Shown here: positions 1 to 9,526 of the stretch, in pieces
Layout of the letters: every line of letters starts with the position of its first letter
Position numbering within the stretch: position 1 is the first letter of the stretch
From: Puniceicoccales bacterium
GTDB taxonomy: Bacteria; Verrucomicrobiota; Verrucomicrobiia; Opitutales; JAIRKQ01
Reading direction: 5' to 3'
Assembly: GCA_031269795.1 (NCBI GenBank)
Contig: JAISYR010000027.1
Span: 1 to 9,526, forward strand
Length of the DNA: 9,526 nucleotides
The notes under the pieces: model-generated
What the model was told of the DNA's origin: nothing
Databases searched by the model: none
The model's input: only the letters and a program-made list of their open reading frames with translations
Position numbers and translations under genes: made by a program

Positions 1-148
1 ACCACATACGTTTAACTTCTCCATCCCACATTTTATTTATTTTTTGAGATGGGATTTTTATACATTTTTTATACATAAAGTTTTCCCGCCATCTTACTTT
101 CACATCCACCTATCCCCCGCAAGGCCTGAATTTATGGATCTTACATCC
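1..148. repeat. tRNA-3'-flanking conserved module, copy A (adjacent to tRNA-Asn; similarity reaches window edge)
   Basis: Aligns without gaps to 3953-4101 at a constant offset of 3952. Hand count: 95/135 identical over 3-137. Near-perfect blocks: 3-9 CACATAC, 33-59 (27/27 identical), 111-137 (25/27). Confidence 0.85.
55..76. repeat. Perfect tandem duplication of the 11-mer TTTTTATACAT (55-65, 66-76)
   Basis: Read directly from the sequence. The equivalent position in copy B (4007-4028) holds a different 11-mer, also duplicated. Confidence 0.9.
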
Positions 149-223
<75 letters not shown>

Positions 224-234
224 ATACGTGAACT

Positions 235-264
235 TTTATAAAGGCAATGCTAGTGCAATGTCAA
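235..264 (-). promoter_or_regulatory. Putative sigma70-type promoter of tRNA-Asn
   Basis: Minus strand reads TTGACA (264-259), a 17-18 nt spacer, then TTATAA/TATAAA (241-235). The -10 ends about 10 nt before the tRNA 5' end at 223. Confidence 0.55.
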
Positions 265-494
265 CAGGAAAAATAACGCCTTCCATGCTTACCATGGCCA
301 TTTAATTTTTTACCATAGAAGAACAAAAGAGTAAGCAAGTGGCAATGGAAAAAATGGACAGTTCAAGGGAAAGGTTGGAAAAGTGGGAAGACTCGACGAC
401 TGCCTTCGGACAAAGATACGGTTCGGTGGCACATGCTAGCAGCCCTAATTGCTGATTTTTAACGGGGTATTGGGTATATAAAAGTATCATAAAA

Positions 495-1616
495 ATGTTG
501 CAGTTTTTTGTGAAAACGTATCACGTTTTGGTCATGAATATTTCCATACAATCTACGCGACGAAACGAAAAAATTCTTGGCATAGAAGTACTACGATTTT
601 TGTGTGCATGTTCCATTCTTGTGTGGCATTATTGGCATTTTGCATTCGGAAATGACCTGGCCGTCAGACAGGATCAACCATTCTACGCCTTTCTTAGATT
701 TTTTTACACAAAGGGACACTATGCTGTACAAATTTTCTGGATGATCAGCGGGTACATATTCTTTTGGAAGTACAAAAATGCAATTGCTGACCGCAGCGTT
801 GGGTTTAGAAAATTTTGCATATTAAGAATTTCCAGGCTATACCCGTTACATGCTATAACATTACTATTAGTCCTTGTCATGCAGTATCTTTTTTTGGCTA
901 AAAATGGGAAGTTTTTCATATACTCCGATAATGGGGTAAAATCTTTTATTTTACAAATTTTCATGGCTAACTTTTGGCCAATCAATGCAATCCATAGTTT
1001 TAACGCACCCATATGGTCAGTTTCCCTAGAAATTATGGTGTATTTTATTTTCTTTTTCTGTACCCGTTATTTGGGACAACGCATATGGCAAGTTTTGCCA
1101 ATATTTGGGTCGGCGCTGCTCCTATTGTTAATTTCTGGGTGTAAAAATGTTTTCTGGTGCACGCTATTTTTCTATGCCGGTGGGTTGGTAAACTATGTGC
1201 AAGAATTTATGCAAAATATTCCCAAACAGCGGCGGAAGGCTATGCTGAAGAATGTCCTTATCCTAATGGCTGAAATGGTGTGTTGTCTTAAAATATTACA
1301 TGCGGACCGAGCTTTTCGCCTAATGTTGTGTGGTGCCGTTGCCATATACGTGTTTGTGGAGTATGTAAAAATTCCATCAAATTTTGAAAAATTCGTTGAA
1401 ATGCTTGGAAATTTGACATATTCGTGCTACCTTATCCATTTCCCAATTCAATTGGGAATAGCCCTCATTTATTCGCATATGGGCAGGGTAATTCCCTTCG
1501 AAAGCCACATTTTCTTTCTGACATTTTTTGCCATCACATTGGTGATGTCCAGAATAGTTTTTGTCAAATTTGAAGCCACTGCCATGAAGAAGATAAGAAA
1601 GGTATTTCTTGGCTGA
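495..1616 (+). CDS. Acyltransferase family 3 (OafA/Oac-like) integral membrane protein
   Basis: 373-aa ORF, hydrophobic throughout with many predicted TM segments. The N-terminal motif ILGIEVLRFLCACSILVWHYWHF resembles the conserved R...H signature of the acyltransferase_3 family. An alternative start is ATG 534 (MNISIQ...). No SD at either start. Confidence 0.8.
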   Translation: MLQFFVKTYHVLVMNISIQSTRRNEKILGIEVLRFLCACSILVWHYWHFAFGNDLAVRQDQPFYAFLRFFYTKGHYAVQIFWMISGYIFFWKYKNAIADRSVGFRKFCILRISRLYPLHAITLLLVLVMQYLFLAKNGKFFIYSDNGVKSFILQIFMANFWPINAIHSFNAPIWSVSLEIMVYFIFFFCTRYLGQRIWQVLPIFGSALLLLLISGCKNVFWCTLFFYAGGLVNYVQEFMQNIPKQRRKAMLKNVLILMAEMVCCLKILHADRAFRLMLCGAVAIYVFVEYVKIPSNFEKFVEMLGNLTYSCYLIHFPIQLGIALIYSHMGRVIPFESHIFFLTFFAITLVMSRIVFVKFEATAMKKIRKVFLG

Positions 1617-1734
1617 CAATCAATTGGCGTAAATCTCGAGCCATAGGTCAGTCAGGGTGGGATAGGTTACGATAATGGCTTAAAAAGTCATTTAATAGTC
1701 GATTTTCTTGGAAAGAAGTACAGAATGCAGAAAA

Positions 1735-3156
1735 ATGGTTCTGCGCAAAAAAGAAATATTGGTCCGGCTTATCCGGATGTTCAATGGTCAAAATTTTTCA
1801 GAAAACATTGGACAAATTTCCCATGAACACGAGCAAGATTCGAAAGAAGTCGCGGTCTGTCGAGCTCTGGCCATGAGTATTTTGGGCCTAGCATTGGAAG
1901 GGGATGATGGCAAAGAATCGCTGGACCAATGCGCTCAGCGAGCTTTGAAACGTGAAAAACCTTCTTCGCCACCCCTAACCGTGCTCCACTGTGCATGCAA
2001 TGGGTGCAAAACCAGCCACATACACGTTACCGATTTATGTCAAAACTGTACAAAAAAACCATGCGTAGCCGCCTGTCGATTCCATGCAATTAGCAATGAT
2101 GGGAAGCGGTCGGCCATTGATGCAAAAAGTTGTAAAAAATGTAGTGCGTGCCTGCGTGCTTGCCCCTACGGTGCCATTGTTAAAACCATTGTCCCCTGCG
2201 AAAATGTTTGCCCGATTGATGCCATTGCGAAGGACGAAACTGGGCGTGCAGTGATTGATTTCACCAAATGTATCAGCTGTGGAAAATGTATGGCTGCTTG
2301 CCCATTCGAAGCCATTCAGGTCAGAAGTCAAGTTATCGATGTGCTTAGGGCCATGAAATCCGAGAGAAAAGTGATAGCTTTGATGGCTCCCGCATTATTT
2401 GGACAGTTCAAATGTTCCGCAGAACAGCTGCATGGTGCCATGAAAAAAATTGGATTTTCCCTTGTCTACGAAGTTGCCATTGGAGCAGAATCCACGTCGT
2501 TGCATGAGGCAAAAGATCTGGAAGAACGCCTATCCAGAGGTGAAAAATTTATGACAACATCCTGTTGTGCCGCCTACAACAATCTCGTGAAGAAACATAT
2601 TCCAGATTTAAAACCGTTCGTTTCATCCTCCGGCACACCACTATTTTATACGGCGGAGCGTGTGCGGAAGGAGCATGGAAACGGTGTTTTGGTTTTCATT
2701 AGTCCGTGTGTGGCCAAATATGAGGAAGTATTTGCAAATGAAAAGATTGATTTTGTTCTTAGCTGTGAAGAGGTTGAAGCATTATTTGAAGCATTTTCAA
2801 TTATCCCCAGCGAATGTGAAGGAGAAGCATTTCCATACCAAACGGCACGGGAAGCAAGGGAGTTTGCCGTAAGCGGTGGTGTTTCCCGGGCGGTGCAAAG
2901 TGTTCTAGACCCTAACGGGAAAGAAGTAATGTTTACACCTATTAATGGACTGGATCGCGAAGTTGTGAAGGATTTGAAACGTTTTGCCAAAGTTGAGGAA
3001 TGTGAAAAGGGGACCGTATTGGAAGTAATGTCATGCCAGGGGGGATGCATTGGCGGTGGACTGGTCTGTTGTCCGATTGCTACCGCCCTTAGGCAAGTTA
3101 AAAATTATGGGGAAAAAGGACCACCCCTATCGCGGGACCATTTGATTCTCCGTTAA
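1735..3156 (+). CDS. [FeFe]-hydrogenase-type protein, monomeric group-B-like (4Fe-4S ferredoxin domains plus H-cluster domain)
   Basis: Two CxxCxxCxxxCP motifs (CKKCSACLRACP, CISCGKCMAACP) and CQNCTKKPCVAAC. H-cluster-type motifs are FMTTSCCAAY (L1), FISPCVAKYEE (L2) and EVMSCQGGCIGGG (L3). The ORF track starts at TTG 1708; I prefer the in-frame ATG at 1735. Confidence 0.85.
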   Translation: MVLRKKEILVRLIRMFNGQNFSENIGQISHEHEQDSKEVAVCRALAMSILGLALEGDDGKESLDQCAQRALKREKPSSPPLTVLHCACNGCKTSHIHVTDLCQNCTKKPCVAACRFHAISNDGKRSAIDAKSCKKCSACLRACPYGAIVKTIVPCENVCPIDAIAKDETGRAVIDFTKCISCGKCMAACPFEAIQVRSQVIDVLRAMKSERKVIALMAPALFGQFKCSAEQLHGAMKKIGFSLVYEVAIGAESTSLHEAKDLEERLSRGEKFMTTSCCAAYNNLVKKHIPDLKPFVSSSGTPLFYTAERVRKEHGNGVLVFISPCVAKYEEVFANEKIDFVLSCEEVEALFEAFSIIPSECEGEAFPYQTAREAREFAVSGGVSRAVQSVLDPNGKEVMFTPINGLDREVVKDLKRFAKVEECEKGTVLEVMSCQGGCIGGGLVCCPIATALRQVKNYGEKGPPLSRDHLILR

Positions 3157-3225
3157 ATTTATGAAAAAGAAACCTGTGAATGGGGTTGCGGTCAGCCTTT
3201 TTGAGGTTTGTGGGTTCGGGTTCAT
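3127..3225 (-). other. Orphan 32-codon ORF with a strong SD (possible 5' stub of a deleted element gene)
   Basis: Minus strand reads AGGAGGTGAatcATG with the ATG at 3225. Translation is MNPNPQTSKRLTATPFTGFFFINLTENQMVPR*. It runs antisense across the hydrogenase stop at 3156. No homology recognised. Confidence 0.3.
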
Positions 3226-3363
3226 GATTCACCTCCTGAAACATTGAGTTTTTGAGCTTTGCAGAGCTTGACGGTGGCGGTAATTTCCTTCCGGATTTTT
3301 ATAAACTTCATCGGGTCTTCACCAAGAAACAATCGATGCTTCCTTCCGGGTGAGGTAGGTGCA
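3222..3363 (-). pseudogene. Third excisionase-family HTH module, split by a frameshift
   Basis: TYLTRKEA (frame of ORF 3319-3618) is followed by 7 nt (tcgattg, 3336-3330). FLGEDPMKFIKIRKEITATVKLCKAQKLNVSGGES* then continues in the frame of track ORF 3222-3422. The sister modules have exactly 2 codons (6 nt) between EA and the F/Y-L residues, so a 1-nt insertion explains the split. Confidence 0.45.
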
Positions 3364-3618
3364 GATGCCTTTCTGGTCCCATCCCGATTTCGGCTGGGAG
3401 AATTTTTCATCAAAACTTCCACCTTTGGTCTGGGGACGAACTAGCCCATCGAGGTCTTCCTTGGTATAAAGCACTTTCCCGCCAAGTTTATGAGAAGGAA
3501 TGTGTTTGTGGTTATCCCTCAACATAGCCGGCGATACGCGTAGATATTTCGCCGCTTCTTCCCGGGTGAGGTAGGTATGAGGGGTTGTCAATGATGATTG
3601 GGAGATATTTTCGTTCAT
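3319..3618 (-). CDS. Excisionase/AlpA-type helix-turn-helix protein (HTH_17-like), module 2
   Basis: TYLTREEAAKYLRVSPAMLRDNHKHIPSHKLGGKVLYTKEDLDGLV fits the excisionase-family HTH pattern. ATG 3618 is preceded by GGAGGGAGAGT (strong SD). The track start at GTG 3636 is less likely. The C-terminus ends in a truncated repeat of its own HTH start (TYLTRKEAS). Confidence 0.75.
   Translation of the reverse strand: MNENISQSSLTTPHTYLTREEAAKYLRVSPAMLRDNHKHIPSHKLGGKVLYTKEDLDGLVRPQTKGGSFDEKFSQPKSGWDQKGICTYLTRKEASIVSW
3338..3360. repeat. 23-bp direct repeat, copy 1 (gcttccttccgggtgaggtaggt)
   Basis: 21/23 identical to 3554-3576, which lies 216 bp away. It encodes the TYLTR(K/E)EA start of HTH modules 3 and 2. 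Confidence 0.85.
3554..3576. repeat. 23-bp direct repeat, copy 2 (gcttcttcccgggtgaggtaggt)
   Basis: Partner of 3338-3360. Confidence 0.85.
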
Positions 3619-3854
3619 ACTCTCCCTCCTATCCACTCTGCGTTAGTATGCGATAGGGATTCTATGAATTCGACGAGGTCTTGTTTTAGGAATCTTCTGT
3701 ATCTTCCTATTTTTACAGATTTTAGCCGGGGGTATTTATTTGTACTTAACCAAAACGACAGAATACTTGTTTTTATTCCAAGAAACCTTGCCGCTTCCTT
3801 GACATTTAACAGATTTTCGTTATAATCTTTATTTGTTTGCTGCGCATTAATACA
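3615..3854 (-). pseudogene. Excisionase/AlpA-type HTH ORF (module 1) with no canonical start codon; pseudogene or non-canonical initiation
   Basis: Hand translation stop-to-stop: CINAQQTNKDYNENLLNVKEAARFLGIKTSILSFWLSTNKYPRLKSVKIGRYRRFLKQDLVEFIESLSHTNAEWIGGRV*. This is a classic HTH_17 pattern. It has no in-frame ATG, GTG or TTG, so it is absent from the ORF track. Its TGA overlaps the module 2 ATG as ATGA (3618-3615). Confidence 0.6.
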
Positions 3855-3910
3855 CTACTCGTAACCATAAGTAGGCGCTAGTTTGTGAAGATCTTGTAAA
3901 ATTTCAAACT

Positions 3911-3939
3911 TTTTTATCAGTATTTAAACATTTTTACAA
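3911..3939 (-). promoter_or_regulatory. Candidate promoter for the HTH array
   Basis: Minus strand reads TTGTAA (3939-3934), 17 nt, then TAAAAA (3916-3911), followed by AGTTTGA, which resembles the tRNA upstream motif. An 8-bp palindrome AAGATCTT (3888-3895) lies just downstream. Confidence 0.3.
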
Positions 3940-3952
3940 AGGCTATATACCC

Positions 3953-4101
3953 ATCACATACATCTACTTTTCCTACTTCCCAACTTATTTATTTTTTGAG
4001 ATGGGATTTTTGTCCATATTTTGTCCATGGACTTTTCTTGATACTCTGTTTTGTGCTTCCATTATCCCCCGCTAGGCCTGAATTTGTGGGACTTTTACGG
4101 C
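3953..4101. repeat. tRNA-3'-flanking conserved module, copy B (adjacent to tRNA-Gln)
   Basis: Partner of 1-148. Blocks are 3955-3961, 3985-4011 and 4063-4089. Block-to-block spacing is identical to copy A (30 and 78 nt). Distance to the tRNA 3' end differs by 1 nt. Confidence 0.85.
4007..4028. repeat. Tandem 11-mers TTTTTGTCCAT / ATTTTGTCCAT
   Basis: Read directly from the sequence. Same position and phase as the TTTTTATACAT pair in copy A. Confidence 0.9.
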
Positions 4102-4175
4102 TGGCTGCCTGACCAGGGTTCGAACCTAGACAAACTGGACCAAAACCAGTTGTGCTACCATTACACCATCAGGCA
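4102..4175 (-). tRNA. tRNA-Gln (anticodon TTG)
   Basis: Reverse complement reads TGCCTGA-TG-GTGT-AATGGTA-GCAC-A-ACTGG-TTTTGGT-CCAGT-TTGT-CTAGG-TTCGAAC-CCTGG-TCAGGCA-G-CCA. Anticodon loop is TTTTGGT and CCA is encoded. Length 74 nt. Confidence 0.95.
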
Positions 4176-4212
4176 ATCAAAACTTTTATTTAACGTTGCC
4201 GCTAAATGCGGG

Positions 4213-4242
4213 TTTTTAAAACATTCTACTTGGCAAAGTCAA
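4213..4242 (-). promoter_or_regulatory. Candidate promoter of tRNA-Gln
   Basis: Minus strand reads TTGACT (4242-4237), 17-18 nt, then TTAAAA/TAAAAA (4219-4213). An alternative proximal -10-like AATAAA/TAAATA at about 4187-4192 aligns with the tRNA-Asn -10 but has no good -35. Confidence 0.3.
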
Positions 4243-4258
4243 GTGTAAGCAATATTTA
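4230..4258 (+). promoter_or_regulatory. Candidate hemW promoter (very short leader)
   Basis: TTGGCA (4230-4235), 17 nt, then TATTTA (4253-4258). Only 14 nt separate it from ATG 4273 and there is no SD. Confidence 0.35.
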
Positions 4259-4272
4259 TCCTAGCAATCGGG

Positions 4273-5451
4273 ATGTATTGCCTAGAAAAAACATCAATTA
4301 CGACAAATAAACTGGGGCTATATTGCCATGTGCCATTTTGCGCTCACAGGTGCTCCTATTGTGCCTTTTATCAGGAACCACCGATCCGTCAACTGATTGA
4401 GCAATATTTGTTTGGCATAGAAAAGGAATTTTCTCTGTTGGGAATTAGACAACCTTTTGACACCATTTACGTTGGAGGAGGGACACCTGGCCTATTGACC
4501 CCCAAGAACCTCGAATGGTTGTGCAAAATTTTGACGAAAAATAACCATAAAGTACATCCCGTTGAATTTTCGGTAGAATTTTCTCCGGCTACGATAAAAA
4601 GAGATAAATTGGACATTTTGGCAAATTACCACTGTAACCGCATAACCATGGGAGTACAAAGTTTTAATCCAAAAATCATACAAATTCTTGGAAGGAGGCA
4701 GACCCATCGACAGGTTTTAGAAGCCTGGGAAATAATTTCATCCTGTAAGATTGGCAATGTCGGAATCGACTTAATTTTTGGAATTCCAGGACAAACACTC
4801 GATGAATGGATGCAAGACTTACAGCAGGCGGTCGATTTAAAGCCGCAGCACATCTCAACCTATAACCTAACGTTTGAAAATGACACTCCCCTTGGAGATA
4901 AATTACTTGCAAAATTTCTTGACAAAAAATCAAACGATGAGGAAGCGGACTTTTATTTGCAAACCTGGGACTTTCTCAGAAAGAATGGCTATGAACACTA
5001 TGAAATTTCCAATTTTTGTTTGCCCACCTTTGAAAGCGTTCACAACTCAAACACGTGGGAAATGCAAGATTGGATCGGGGTTGGTCCAGCTGCCTGTTCC
5101 CAATGTAAAAACCGAAGATTTGCCAACCCGCCGTCCATTGCCAGATGGCTACAATCTCTCGAACGGGGACATCTGGCCTATGTATATGAAGAGGTTCTCA
5201 GCGAACAAGTTCTTGCGGAGGATTCCATAATCTTTGGCCTGCGAATGAATAGGGGGATTGACATTTTAAACCTACGAAATAGGTATCCCACCGTTGATTT
5301 TTCACGGCTGGATGATTTATTTTCCCAGTTGGCAACCGGAGGCTTTTTGCAAGTGACAAACCATATCATCCGATTGACGGATGCGGGCCGTCTCATTGCG
5401 GACACCATTGCGGTAAAAATTTTAGAAAACATCCCTGTTCTTGCCTCCTAA
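4273..5451 (+). CDS. hemW: Radical SAM heme chaperone HemW (HemN-like, oxygen-independent coproporphyrinogen oxidase family)
   Basis: 392 aa. CAHRCSYC radical-SAM CxxxCxxC motif near the N-terminus, YVGGGTPG motif, and a HemN_C-like tail. The size and short N-terminus fit HemW rather than HemN. Confidence 0.85.
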   Translation: MYCLEKTSITTNKLGLYCHVPFCAHRCSYCAFYQEPPIRQLIEQYLFGIEKEFSLLGIRQPFDTIYVGGGTPGLLTPKNLEWLCKILTKNNHKVHPVEFSVEFSPATIKRDKLDILANYHCNRITMGVQSFNPKIIQILGRRQTHRQVLEAWEIISSCKIGNVGIDLIFGIPGQTLDEWMQDLQQAVDLKPQHISTYNLTFENDTPLGDKLLAKFLDKKSNDEEADFYLQTWDFLRKNGYEHYEISNFCLPTFESVHNSNTWEMQDWIGVGPAACSQCKNRRFANPPSIARWLQSLERGHLAYVYEEVLSEQVLAEDSIIFGLRMNRGIDILNLRNRYPTVDFSRLDDLFSQLATGGFLQVTNHIIRLTDAGRLIADTIAVKILENIPVLAS

Positions 5452-5503
5452 AACCTGATTTAGACAGGAATAAATTTAAAAACATGCCATCGATGTAAGC
5501 GCA

Positions 5504-8140
5504 TCAAGGATTTTCCTGCGGTTTATTGTAGCCACCCATGGCAAACGCTGCCCGCCCACCTCCGGATCCTTTGTATTTGAGTGTGAGTTTTTTAACAATG
5601 TCATTAGCATTAAAGCCGGCCACGATTGCAGCTTCGGAGCAACAGGCAACAACGGAACACTTGCCCTGTGTACACGAAGTCAAAGTTACTACGCCCTCTT
5701 CAATCCTATGCAAAATATCCAATGCCAATGTTCGCAATTCATCGGGCTGTAGGTCGTCGACCTCTTTTTCGATGTGAATCATTTTTCCTTCCGACGGAGA
5801 GCTCGCCCGTACCACTTCCAAGGCCATGTTTTGCAGAAACATTTGCCGGGCCACTTTCGCAGATTTTTCCAGTTCCTTGCAGCGATTCACAAAAGAATCT
5901 ACTTTATCCAAGAGTTCCGAAGGTTGGCATGTGAAGAGCTTACACTGCTGCCCGACAATGGCACCATGCGTTCTAAAAAGATCAAGGGCTGCTTGTCCCG
6001 TAACTGCTTCTATGCGCCGAATGCCAGCAGCAATCGCAGAGGTAGAAATAATTTTGAAACATGCAACTTCGGAGGTATTGTTGACATGGCATCCACCACA
6101 TAGCTCTTGGGAAAAGTCTCCAAATTCGACCACGCGAACAATTTCACCATATTTTTCTCCAAAATTGGCAATGCAGCCCGGAGGAATGTGATCTTTGTGA
6201 GTTTCAAAAATTTTGGAATTTTCGCAGTCGAGGATTTTTTCTTCCACGAGCTTTTCAACCTTTTCCAATTCTTGTTCCGTCGGAACAGCAAGGACATTGA
6301 AATCAAAACGAAGGCGTCGGTCATCGACATGGGATCCCGCCTGCTTGATGTGATTTCCAAGAACCTGTCGCAGGGCAAAATGGAGAATGTGGGTGACGGA
6401 ATGATTCCTAGAAACATTGCGGCGAAATGATTTATCAACTGACAAAATTGCCCCTTGGTGCGGAGATAGGGAGTCAATTTGTTCCCGTATTTCATGGAGG
6501 TAGCATCCGTTCTTATCCTTCTGCACATCGACCACATGAAAAATATGCGGTCCAATTTGGACGGTTCCCCGGTCCCCAACTTGTCCTCCGCATTCCGCAT
6601 AGAATGGAGTCTTGTCGAAAATTAGAAATGTTTTTCCTGCCCTACCAATGACATCCAATGTGACTGCCTGAATATTTTCAATGCTACCAATGTCATAGCC
6701 GACGAATTCCGTCTGTGGCACGGCATTATTTGCCACTTCGATGACAGATTTTTTCTGGGCTGAACGGGCAAGCATACGCTGTTTTTCCATGGCACATTTG
6801 AAACCATCAATGTCGACGGAGATTCCTCGTTCCGCCGCCATTAACTGTGTCAAATCCAGGGGAAATCCATAGGTGTCGTACAGCAAAAACGCATAATTTC
6901 CTGCGATAACGTTTCCAGACTTTTCGCAGATTTCATGGAAAATTGTAATCCCCCGGTCGATGGTTTTTGAAAATGATTGTTCTTCATTTTTCAGTACCGT
7001 TTCGATGGTTGACTTTTGTTCGACTAGTTCACCGAAAATTGCCCCCATTTTGTCGATGACTACCGATGACAGTTTTGAAAAAAATCCATGGGGTAGTTTT
7101 AGTAACTTTCCAAACATTACAGCTCTCCGCAGAATCCTGCGTAGAACGTAGCCACGACCTTCATTGGATGGGAATATTCCATCGCCTATGGCAAATGTCA
7201 GGGTTCTAACATGGTCAGCAATCGCCCGGAACCAAAAGTCAACGCGTTCATCCGATGACATGTTTGTTCGGGAAGTGGAAATAGTTCCATGGTATTTTTG
7301 GCCGCACATTTTTTCAGTCGCAGTGAAAATGTCCGCAAACAGGTCGCTATCGTAGTTGGATGGCAATTGGGAAAAATCGGAAAAGTTTTTAGTTTTTGCC
7401 AAAATTCCCACGACGCGTTCAAACCCGATCCCCGTGTCGACATGTTTGTCCTTTAAATTTTCAAAGGTTCCGTTGACCGTGGCATTAAATTGAATAAAGA
7501 CAAGGTTCCATAGCTCTATGCACCAGGGACTACCAGCGTTGACTAGTCCACCGTTGCTATCGCCTTTCGGGGTCAGGTCCATGTGTATTTCGGAGCATGG
7601 TCCACAGGGACCCGTGTCTCCCATCATCCAAAAATTATCGGCCTTGGAACCTTCGACGATATGAACTTTGGGATCCATGTTTTCCTTCAAGAAAATTTCT
7701 TCCCAGACGGCATATGATTCTTGGTCAAAGGAAGAGGGTTCGTTGGGTTTTGGGGAATAGATAGTGGCATAGAGTCTATTTTTAGGAAAATTCCAGACCT
7801 TTGTCAGCAGTTCCCAGGCCATTTCGATGGCTTCTCTTTTAAAATAATCCCCGAATGACCAATTGCCAAGCATTTCAAAGAACGTGTGGTGGTAAGTATC
7901 GAATCCGACGTCGTCGAGGTCATTGTGTTTCCCTCCTGCCCGGATACACTTCTGTGTATCAGCCACCTGTGGGCAGGTCGGTTGGGTTTGTCCGAGGAAA
8001 AACGGAACAAACTGGTTCATGCCAGCATTCGTAAACAGTAGGTTCGGTGTGTCGGGCAAAAGGGATGCCGACTTTACTATTTTATGCCCATGGCGGGAAA
8101 AAAAATCTAGGAACGACTGTCTAACCTCATTGGAGTTCAT
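5504..8140 (-). CDS. alaS: Alanine--tRNA ligase
   Basis: 878 aa. Motifs: FTNAGMNQF, KCIRAGGKHNDLDDVG, FFEMLGNWSFGDYFK, editing-domain HSVTHILH and CGGCHV, and a C-terminal GSGGGRAAFAMGG (DHHA1). Confidence 0.97.
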   Translation of the reverse strand: MNSNEVRQSFLDFFSRHGHKIVKSASLLPDTPNLLFTNAGMNQFVPFFLGQTQPTCPQVADTQKCIRAGGKHNDLDDVGFDTYHHTFFEMLGNWSFGDYFKREAIEMAWELLTKVWNFPKNRLYATIYSPKPNEPSSFDQESYAVWEEIFLKENMDPKVHIVEGSKADNFWMMGDTGPCGPCSEIHMDLTPKGDSNGGLVNAGSPWCIELWNLVFIQFNATVNGTFENLKDKHVDTGIGFERVVGILAKTKNFSDFSQLPSNYDSDLFADIFTATEKMCGQKYHGTISTSRTNMSSDERVDFWFRAIADHVRTLTFAIGDGIFPSNEGRGYVLRRILRRAVMFGKLLKLPHGFFSKLSSVVIDKMGAIFGELVEQKSTIETVLKNEEQSFSKTIDRGITIFHEICEKSGNVIAGNYAFLLYDTYGFPLDLTQLMAAERGISVDIDGFKCAMEKQRMLARSAQKKSVIEVANNAVPQTEFVGYDIGSIENIQAVTLDVIGRAGKTFLIFDKTPFYAECGGQVGDRGTVQIGPHIFHVVDVQKDKNGCYLHEIREQIDSLSPHQGAILSVDKSFRRNVSRNHSVTHILHFALRQVLGNHIKQAGSHVDDRRLRFDFNVLAVPTEQELEKVEKLVEEKILDCENSKIFETHKDHIPPGCIANFGEKYGEIVRVVEFGDFSQELCGGCHVNNTSEVACFKIISTSAIAAGIRRIEAVTGQAALDLFRTHGAIVGQQCKLFTCQPSELLDKVDSFVNRCKELEKSAKVARQMFLQNMALEVVRASSPSEGKMIHIEKEVDDLQPDELRTLALDILHRIEEGVVTLTSCTQGKCSVVACCSEAAIVAGFNANDIVKKLTLKYKGSGGGRAAFAMGGYNKPQENP

Positions 8141-8200
8141 TTATTGGGCAGTAAGCTAGGGAATGGGAAACATTTGCCAAATAAAAAATGTTCCGAGGGA

Positions 8201-8908
8201 TTATTTTTGCAACAGCTTCATGAGCGATTGAAATTTTTTCGGCAATGGGGATTCGATTTTCTGGGAAGAATTGATCCCAAGGCATGACAGATGGATCGGT
8301 AGATATTGTGTACTCCAATGGTTTTCGAGGTTCGGTGTTTTTAAGAATTTCTTCGTGATATTTATGCCGTGGGAAGCGTACAAATTTTCCCCGATTATTC
8401 CTAGGCCGCACTCGTGGGCATGGAGGCGGATTTGGTGTGGCCTCAGGAAACATGTGGTGGCTTGCCAATGTTCGTAGGGACCGACATTTTCGACGAACCG
8501 AAAATCCGTACGTGATTTTTTGCCGGTTTTGTGGGAAACGACCATGGTATGGCGGAAAGAATGTTTTGCGACGGGGAGATCACAGGTAATTATTTTGTCC
8601 AGGGCCGAGGGAAGTGTTAGCAGGTCGAATGTAAACGTAAGAAGTTGGGAACCATAGCAATTTCGCAGCTCAGCCGTCGATTGTTTCGTCTTCGCGACCA
8701 AAAATATTCCCGAAATTTCCCCGTCGAGGGTAAAGATTGCTTTTGGATATTCTGTCCATTGTTTCGGGAGGTGTTCAATAATTTTTTCGGAGGGAACATT
8801 GGGCGGTTTGTCGATGGCCAAAAAATCGTCCCGGTTTAGCAAGATTTTTACTTTTGTACTGGTTTCACGAATTGTATTTGGGGGAAAGCCGATGAAATTT
8901 CGTTCCAT
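8201..8908 (-). CDS. Divergent RluA-family pseudouridine synthase-like protein
   Basis: AIDKPPNV (compare DKPxG), FTLDGEISGIFLVAKT (compare HRLDxxTSGxxxxAKT) and LRPHQIRLHAHECGLGIIGENLY (compare GRxHQIRxH...GxPIxGDxxY). The track start is TTG 8914, immediately after the ruvA stop. I prefer ATG 8908. Confidence 0.7.
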   Translation of the reverse strand: MERNFIGFPPNTIRETSTKVKILLNRDDFLAIDKPPNVPSEKIIEHLPKQWTEYPKAIFTLDGEISGIFLVAKTKQSTAELRNCYGSQLLTFTFDLLTLPSALDKIITCDLPVAKHSFRHTMVVSHKTGKKSRTDFRFVENVGPYEHWQATTCFLRPHQIRLHAHECGLGIIGENLYASHGINITKKFLKTPNLENHWSTQYLPIHLSCLGINSSQKIESPLPKKFQSLMKLLQK

Positions 8909-8914
8909 TGGCAA

Positions 8915-9526
8915 TTACGTGTTTAGGGCAGACCGAATTATTGCTTCCGTCGAAGCATTGTTTCCGAGCCGTTCGATTGACTGTCGGATAGCCCGTTCCG
9001 CATCGGTCGTTTTATATCCCAACGACAGGAGGGCGGCCATGGCATCACCAATGTTGCTCGACTGGGAAGAAGATTTTTTGTTCGTCGGTATGATAGATTT
9101 TGCTGCGATAGCGGAAATATCCTTGTCGGACAACTCCATGATTATTCTCTCTGCAGATTTCTTGCCGATGCCGTGGCATTTGGCTAAAATATCAGCATTC
9201 CGCGTTGAAATGGCGTCCTTGAGTACCGTCAGAGACAATTTACTCATAATATTCAGGGCTGTTCGCGGACCGATTCCCGAGACTTTTTCGACGATTAGCT
9301 TGAAAAAATCCCGTTCTTCGGTCCTTAGGAATCCGTACAATTCCTGCCTATCCTCCCGGTAAACTGGGTAGATTTGTAACTTCACGCATTCGCCGAGGGC
9401 CGGCAGCTGGCAGCTAACGGTCAGGGGGATATTTATGAAATATCCAATTCCTCCGATTTCTACCGTCGCCGATGTAGCTTCGGATCCCACGAGCGTACCT
9501 GTGAGAAAAACTATCACAATTTTCAT
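8915..9526 (-). CDS. ruvA: Holliday junction branch migration complex subunit RuvA
   Basis: 203 aa. N-terminal OB region VEIGGIGYFINIP, HhH motifs VSGIGPRTALNIMS and CHGIGKKSAERIIMEL, and domain III ALLSLGYKTTDAERAI. The ATG sits exactly at the window edge, so the start cannot be checked against upstream sequence. Confidence 0.9.
   Translation of the reverse strand: MKIVIVFLTGTLVGSEATSATVEIGGIGYFINIPLTVSCQLPALGECVKLQIYPVYREDRQELYGFLRTEERDFFKLIVEKVSGIGPRTALNIMSKLSLTVLKDAISTRNADILAKCHGIGKKSAERIIMELSDKDISAIAAKSIIPTNKKSSSQSSNIGDAMAALLSLGYKTTDAERAIRQSIERLGNNASTEAIIRSALNT

Follow-up and report, generated by a model that had tools for sequence, protein, structure and literature searches.

A repeated module at the 3′ ends of tRNA genes in termite-gut Puniceicoccales is probably the arm of an integration site

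We analysed a stretch of 9,526 nucleotides from a Puniceicoccales bacterium (GenBank assembly GCA_031269795.1, contig JAISYR010000027.1, positions 1 to 9,526 of the forward strand), which is referred to below as the window. The window is low in G+C and carries two tRNA genes, tRNA-Asn and tRNA-Gln, each followed directly at its 3′ end by one copy of a module of ~150 bp. Both tRNAs lie on the minus strand, and the segments 1–148 and 3953–4101 are therefore their 3′ trailers. The tRNA genes, the two copies of the module and the parts of each copy are listed here.

149–223, minus strand: tRNA-Asn(gtt), called by ARAGORN and scoring 72.6 bits with the Rfam tRNA model; CCA encoded; its 3′ ~36 nt are the presumed core of an attachment (att) site
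1–148, minus strand: module copy 1, directly 3′ of tRNA-Asn, cut by the start of the window
4102–4175, minus strand: tRNA-Gln(ttg), called by ARAGORN and Rfam; CCA encoded
3953–4101, minus strand: module copy 2, directly 3′ of tRNA-Gln
3 and 3955 (starts): CACATAC block in copies 1 and 2
33–59, minus strand: block A of copy 1, a 27-mer rich in A-tracts, 27/27 the same as in copy 2
3985–4011, minus strand: block A of copy 2
111–137, minus strand: block B of copy 1, CCATAAATTCAGGCCTTGCGGGGGATA on the minus strand, 25/27 against copy 2
4063–4089, minus strand: block B of copy 2
55–76, minus strand: tandem 11-mers, ATGTATAAAAA twice, 72 nt from the end of tRNA-Asn; proposed arm-type integrase sites, the binding being predicted
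4007–4028, minus strand: tandem 11-mers, ATGGACAAAAT / ATGGACAAAAA, 73 nt from the end of tRNA-Gln

The length of ~36 nt given for the core was inferred from a partial tRNA-Thr copy in a related contig (L006, described below).

When 1–148 was aligned with 3953–4100 (offset 3952), the two trailers matched without gaps at 100 of 148 positions. Over positions 3–137 the count was 95 of 135, exactly the value that had been obtained by hand in the original prediction made from this DNA. Random pairs of 148-mers drawn from the window shared 37.7 ± 5.5 positions, with a maximum of 71, placing the observed identity at z ~11. A module profile run with nhmmer gave E = 2e-31 for copy 1, which is itself a training member of that profile. 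The three blocks described earlier (CACATAC, the 27/27 block and the 25/27 block) were recovered as claimed, along with their start-to-start spacings of 30 and 78 nt in both copies. The offset from the tRNA had also been described as fixed; it is constant to within 1 nt but not exact, owing to a 1-nt indel at the tRNA/module junction (module offset 3952, tRNA offset 3953). Segmental duplication was ruled out as the origin of the repeat, since the tRNA species differ, and the homology begins at the tRNA end without including the upstream DNA. The final 28 nt of tRNA-Asn (149–176) and tRNA-Gln (4102–4129) are identical at 24 of 28 positions, have the T arm in common and both end in GGCAGCCA, so that both could plausibly serve as cores for closely related integrases.

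Block B was scanned against one genome per species (185,579 species representatives), as the original prediction had proposed for the blocks. A single locus was found, in a Puniceicoccales metagenome-assembled genome (MAG; L001, contig JAITIO010000004.1), and the pattern had no match in a metagenome subset or in viral contigs. Other loci (L007 and L041) were reached by protein-guided look-ups. In L001 (and L003) the module lies 3′ of tRNA-Thr(cgt). It lies 3′ of tRNA-Thr(cgt) also in L007, a third MAG, at the same chromosomal site as in L001, after L31 and two tRNA-Thr genes. In L041, from a relative whose hydrogenase is 86% identical, it lies 3′ of tRNA-Leu(caa). All five copies align in register starting at CCA, and the homology common to all of them stops near GTATGT(G), ~140 nt from the tRNA. 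The module is thus seen after Asn, Gln, Thr(cgt) and Leu(caa) tRNAs. In the loci examined it was absent behind tRNA-Thr(tgt), tRNA-Ser(gga), tRNA-Gly(gcc) and tRNA-Pro(ggg), and the picture of a module that follows many tRNAs with no element genes beside it did not emerge. When 1.35 Mb of fetched DNA was searched with a profile of the five copies, only one further copy appeared, at the left end of L006 (E = 0.0017).

Beyond the module, L001 and L007 carry two helix-turn-helix (HTH) genes of the HTH_17 family, a gene for a 366-residue primase-like protein and an AAA_25 helicase gene, and both contigs end inside the element. Homologues of the primase-like protein have matches to Toprim_2 (Toprim) or to the CHC2 zinc finger. 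The module is situated ~250 nt upstream of the first HTH gene. Tandem arrays were observed just upstream of this gene, at the same place but with differing units: CAGCGAA (7 nt) about four times in L001 (4670–4712), CGACCAG (7 nt) about ten times in L007 (9500–9570), and a 14-nt unit twice in L006 (1810–1840); the window has a single unit-like sequence. These arrays could be iterons or a slippage-prone control region. A profile of the primase-like protein retrieved only distant relatives from metagenome contigs, which are informative on architecture and not on the module, and in viral contigs its matches were confined to N-terminal zinc-finger regions.

The module, a tRNA-derived core and an integrase gene are found together in L006, a 9.3-kb metagenome contig with 80% nucleotide identity to the HTH–primase–helicase stretch of L001 (L006 2442–4783). 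Its plus strand reads, in order, the module (reverse complement, 1–83), a 36-nt copy of the tRNA-Thr(cgt) 3′ end (84–120), a 180-nt spacer and the integrase gene, after which come HTH-HTH, the primase-like gene and AAA_25. The integrase is a tyrosine integrase of 408 residues with Arm-DNA-bind_3 and Phage_integrase domains. Puniceicoccales MAGs commonly encode such integrases; the L006 integrase had no match in viral contigs. A partial tRNA copy beside an integrase gene is the signature of an att site, and the module of L006 follows what reads as such a copy. Beside the core, the spacer has the sequence TGTGCAATAAT TAGCAACTGG, which by comparison resembles the TGTGCCAAAGA of the module across the core, a likeness that we regard as suggestive. 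The original prediction had preferred to see the module as an att-site arm of related tRNA-targeting elements. This preference gained support from its occurrence at four tRNA species in four genomes with element genes beyond it, and again from the partial tRNA-Thr copy adjoining the integrase gene in L006.

The inter-block spacer had been thought merely to have diverged by substitution. It does differ between the copies, but it is not neutral, as each copy has a tandem pair of 11-mers here, between blocks A and B. The two members of a pair are perfect or near-perfect repeats of one another, while the pairs differ between copies (ATGTATAAAAA, ATGGACAAAAW and ATTGCCAAAWW); that is, the 11-mer sequences covary inside a copy and differ among copies. 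L001 and L007 share ATTGCCAAATT ATTGCCAAAAA, and the tRNA-Leu copy of L041 has the same ATGGACAAA pair as the tRNA-Gln copy of the window (the same 9-mer pair). In four copies the pair starts 72–73 nt from the tRNA end; in L041, where ~12 proximal nt are missing, it starts at 60 nt. The pattern (6-mer)AAANN(same 6-mer)AAA was counted in 329 kb of non-redundant loci, where it formed 10 independent clusters against 0.04 expected from locally shuffled sequence.

In distant relatives, tRNA-derived cores are likewise bordered by paired repeats of a similar kind, and such pairs recur in soil, bog and freshwater metagenomes. L012, a contig from a bog metagenome that has a distant primase relative, offers the clearest case. 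It contains an intact tRNA-Gly(ccc) along with two incomplete copies of the 3′ end of that gene (30 nt at 100% and 25 nt at 96% identity). Its segment 2563–16936 is a tandem array at tRNA-Gly(ccc), the units of which are separated by these 30- and 25-nt tRNA fragments. The first element encodes a tyrosine integrase along with a CHC2 primase and a DUF3987 helicase; each of its two arms contains a YGCTAAA pair, at 16792/16779 by the intact tRNA and at 6869/6857 by the first core copy and the integrase gene. The next unit is an integrase-less defence island with AbiE (AbiEi/AbiEii) and a TOTE-type archaeo-eukaryotic primase–helicase. It begins with GTGCAAGTAAA twice directly after the core, and the following unit begins with TGCAGTAAA twice. 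In L004 the order is tRNA-Pro, CCTTGCTAAAR twice, and an integrase gene. Sites that occur in both arms, are specific to the element and lie one helical turn apart have the look of the arm-type sites of heterobivalent integrases (PMC2951348). The 11-mer pairs are thus most likely arm-type sites for the N-terminal arm-binding domain of a cognate tyrosine integrase, as judged from their sequence and placement. If the module is an att arm, this assignment is favoured over sites for a recombination directionality factor (RDF).

In the window, the DNA beyond the tRNA-Gln copy of the module carries remains of the same element, arranged as follows.

3837–3952, minus strand: leader from the module to the first HTH gene; holds a 26-nt stretch (3849–3874) identical to L001
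3615–3812, minus strand: HTH_17 gene 1, excisionase/regulator-like; Pfam HTH_17 at 5.4e-8; phrog_66; aligned to L001
3319–3618, minus strand: HTH_17 gene 2; its C-terminus continues into a decayed third HTH copy (repeat D5, 3333–3360 and 3549–3576)
3127–3422, minus strand: what is left of the decayed element, namely an HTH tail that is frameshifted and ends in ...GGES, together with the first few codons of the primase-like gene's leader (ATGAACCC...), from comparison by eye with L006 and L007
3133–3156, plus strand: junction; here the [FeFe]-hydrogenase-like gene has its final ~7 codons supplied by the relic, and these are unlike those of all relatives

The primase-like gene itself is absent from this remnant. 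HTH_17 gene 1 has CTG at the position of the TTG start of L001, and is therefore possibly a pseudogene. The hydrogenase-like protein ends in ...PLSRDHLILR in the window, as against ...PLSDKKPENA in all relatives. In three relatives the gene downstream of the hydrogenase is an aldehyde dehydrogenase gene, and neither HTH genes nor tRNA-Gln occur there. From the altered C-terminus and the different downstream gene, we take 3133–4101 to be a truncated element relic of ~0.95 kb at a rearrangement (synteny) breakpoint, fused into the 3′ end of the hydrogenase gene. In L002, L041 and L042, where the protein is 85–87% identical, the flanking genes on either side of the hydrogenase are again not those of the window; such changes of neighbours point to frequent rearrangement in this lineage. 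The tRNA-Gln element is thus a dead relic, of which the arm and two or three decaying HTH genes are kept.

Several further features of the relic were recorded. The 26-nt stretch at 3849–3874 (CTACTTATGGTTACGAGTAGTGTATT on the tRNA strand) is 100% identical to L001 (~4722–4747) between flanks that are ~70% identical, and contains a CTACT/AGTAG inverted repeat; its fold was no better than that of shuffled sequences, and it had no match in viral contigs. The direct repeat 3333–3360 / 3549–3576 encodes TYLTR(E/K)EA, the start of the HTH_17 motif, reflecting a duplicated HTH gene with one copy frameshifted. L006 encodes a fused double-HTH protein of 160 residues. On the plus strand, 3799–3826 is a perfect sigma-70 consensus promoter (TTGACA-16 nt-TATAAT, 12/12) that runs opposite to the first HTH gene, overlaps its start and points to the module and the tRNA. 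L001 and L007 have this 12/12 promoter as well, but L006 lacks it. Its product might be an antisense or regulatory transcript or, once the element has circularised, a transcript that crosses the junction.

The genes around the tRNAs and modules of the window are ordinary housekeeping genes.

495–1616: Acyl_transf_3 protein
1708–3156: [FeFe]-hydrogenase-like protein
4273–5451: HemN-like radical-SAM protein
5504–8140, minus strand: large open reading frame (ORF), taken by eye only as alanyl-tRNA synthetase
8201–8914, minus strand: pseudouridine synthase
after the 8201–8914 gene: start of a presumed ruvA, by eye only

Taken together, we consider that the module is probably (about 0.72) the element-side arm of the left junction (attL, P′-type) of small elements that integrate in tRNA genes of termite-gut Puniceicoccales. 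It starts at the 3′ end of different tRNA species, has element genes on the element side, and carries short repeats near the core. Such an element would have its own copy of the 3′-terminal ~36 nt of the tRNA that it targets, and strands would be exchanged inside that core. Integration would then swap the last ~36 nt of the tRNA for the identical core of the element, so that the tRNA would stay intact and the element DNA would start after CCA. Related elements residing on different tRNAs (Asn, Gln, Thr, Leu) would have different cores and homologous arms, from which it would follow that the homology of the window copies begins no more than 1 nt from the end of the tRNA. The N-terminal domain of the integrase is predicted to bind the paired 11-mers and its catalytic domain to bind the core. 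The A-tracts that close the 11-mers and fill block A may bend the arm; the flanking A-tracts and the conserved blocks may contribute to the architecture of the recombination complex and of the promoter region that serves the neighbouring HTH operon. The adjacent HTH_17 proteins could act as excision factor, as regulator, or as both.

Viewed against known systems, the module is most likely an attL-like arm of a tRNA-integrating island or prophage with an integrase of the lambda/P4 type, that is, a system of an already-known kind. Like the attL and attP arms of the lambda paradigm, of KplE1/HK620 at argW, of ICEMlSym R7A and of elements with P4-type integrases, it lies directly 3′ of the core tRNA. 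It likewise has short direct repeats near the core and an HTH excisionase-like gene nearby, and the related L006 has an arm-binding integrase. Reported attL regions with arm-type and RDF sites, such as that of KplE1, measure 80–170 nt (PMC2951348), and the ~150 bp of the module fall in this range. The attP of ICEMlSym R7A is 283 bp long with five arm-type motifs (PMC11963761). Published arm-type consensus sequences, such as the TGKTGGTATC of ICEMlSym R7A (PMC11963761), differ from the NNNNNNAAANN of the module, which has an 11-bp period. Compared with known attL arms, the module shows only one pair of sites, and the window is without integrase or attR.

The relatives share with P4-like satellites their tRNA targets and their gene set (tyrosine integrase, HTH_17, primase-like protein, and AAA_25 or DUF3987 helicase). 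In contrast to such satellites, the Puniceicoccales elements have primase and helicase as separate proteins, no capsid-hijacking or helper-related genes were identified in them, and the HTH–primase operon of the window type directly follows the arm, pointing away from the tRNA. L012, with its intact tRNA-Gly, integrase element, core copy, integrase-less island and second core copy, resembles known tandem accretion of islands at one tRNA, with integrase-less relics like cis-mobilizable elements (CIMEs). Each of its cores is followed by a homologous arm with paired 11-mers, and the Gln copy of the window is likewise integrase-less. A CIME by definition has att sites on both sides, whereas the relic in the window has only the tRNA-side junction, its other end being the hydrogenase-gene deletion or rearrangement junction.

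A number of observations weigh against an att arm. There is no integrase ORF in the window, and none was seen past the module in L001 or L007, where ~5 kb are available; among the relatives that carry the module, only L006 has a cognate integrase in the same element. No partial copy of tRNA-Gln or tRNA-Asn (attR) is present in the window, where the relic ends in the hydrogenase junction, and partial copies of other tRNAs are present in L006 (36 nt) and L012 (30 and 25 nt). No empty site was recovered because synteny is broken in all relatives examined, none of which has tRNA-Gln or tRNA-Asn in reach. The module of L041 is solitary in a 168-nt spacer (1889–2056) between tRNA-Leu(caa) and tRNA-Ser(gga), with no element genes nearby, and may be either a relic or a hint of host use. 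Block B, conserved in the Gln copy and in L001, is also partly present inside L006, as the block-B-like sequence TTGCGGGGGATTAGGTAGGTGTAAAACA between the integrase and HTH genes. No core is recognisable there, so that block B may serve the HTH operon as part of its control region (operator) and not be an att feature. A decayed tRNA core in this integrase–HTH spacer was considered and set aside, the similarity being too weak to call. Finally, the HTH–primase block runs in the same direction as the tRNA, pointing away from it, in the window, L001 and L007. In L006 and the integrase element of L012 it runs the opposite way, toward the core, with the integrase gene adjoining. Given these opposite orientations, any attP layout for window-type elements is tentative. 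The simplest reconciliation is that L006 is an integrase-bearing element inserted upstream of a resident window-type element, a tandem accretion as in L012.

A variant of the att-arm reading would treat the module as a portable arm cassette, by which integrase-less primase–helicase satellites of the window, L001 and L007 type borrow in trans the integrase of a co-resident element of the L006 type. We regard this as doubtful. If true, the copy-specific 11-mer pair would be a code that matches a satellite to its helper integrase, and the antisense promoter at 3799–3826 would read across the junction only after circularisation. There would then be a helper–satellite recombination system in reduced, host-associated Verrucomicrobiota, the relics of which drive genome rearrangement.

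Alternatively, the module could be element DNA that serves as the operator/promoter or the replication origin of the HTH–primase–helicase operon, with the 11-mers as HTH_17 operators or as iterons for the primase–helicase, and would merely happen to come first after the core. The constant distance of ~250 nt to the first HTH gene would suit this, and so would the fact that, in L006, block B and nearby repeats also precede the HTH operon, lying between it and the integrase gene without a core. Proteins of the HTH_17 and BldC type bind direct repeats one turn apart (PMC11963761).

The element-specific short tandem repeats beside an AT-rich stretch also resemble satellite origins such as those of P4 and SaPI (Staphylococcus aureus pathogenicity islands). 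Paired 11-mers, however, lie in both arms round the cores of the L012 integrase element, and they follow the core of the L012 island, which has neither a primase of the same family nor an HTH_17 gene. In L004 the pair is placed between the tRNA and the integrase gene. The 11-mers of L001 and L007 are identical although their primase-like proteins are only 54% identical, and two repeats are few for an origin. An operator or origin function for the module is thus unlikely.

It appears quite improbable that the module is a host-encoded tRNA trailer or tRNA-linked repeat (a terminator, spacer promoter or curved DNA). The solitary copy between tRNA-Leu and tRNA-Ser in L041 and the shared chromosomal site of L001 and L007 are what such a trailer would give. 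Against it, the module is missing from three or four further tRNAs of the same loci or related ones, HTH/primase element genes follow it in 4 of 5 cases, and it also comes after the partial tRNA copy beside the integrase in L006. Moreover, the block B scan of the 185,579 species representatives yielded one locus, that of the metagenome subset yielded none, and no terminator-like site is present within the module.

A short non-autonomous insertion targeting tRNA 3′ ends, like a miniature inverted-repeat transposable element or a solo arm cassette, would account for the solitary L041 copy and for the common stop of homology ~140 nt from the tRNA. Such an insertion is very improbable. Neither terminal inverted repeats nor a target duplication could be read from the sequence, the copy number is very low, and the homology of the Gln copy to L001 runs past the module into the leader and the HTH genes.

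A structured RNA co-transcribed with the tRNA, the trailer RNA of the original prediction, agrees with the position of the module immediately downstream of tRNAs on the same strand and with its exactly spaced blocks, but it is scarcely credible and was rejected: Rfam gave no match even at E ≤ 1, folding z-scores were −0.9 to +0.3 over both strands, the four-copy consensus fold had 3 invariant pairs, no covariation and −0.55 kcal/mol, and the variable part changes as paired direct repeats and not as compensatory pairs.

The att-arm reading means that uncultured termite-gut Puniceicoccales carry a family of tRNA-integrating primase–helicase elements, the junction arms of which are recognisable from sequence alone. 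Relics of these elements mark rearrangement breakpoints in the reduced genomes of these bacteria, for example where one is fused with the tail of a hydrogenase gene. A simple, testable signature of arm sites is provided by the paired 11-bp repeats, which are specific to each copy, separated by one helical turn and placed at a constant distance from the end of the tRNA; beyond this signature, the mechanism is that of textbook site-specific recombination. The signature could help to delimit islands in MAGs, where contigs usually break inside islands.

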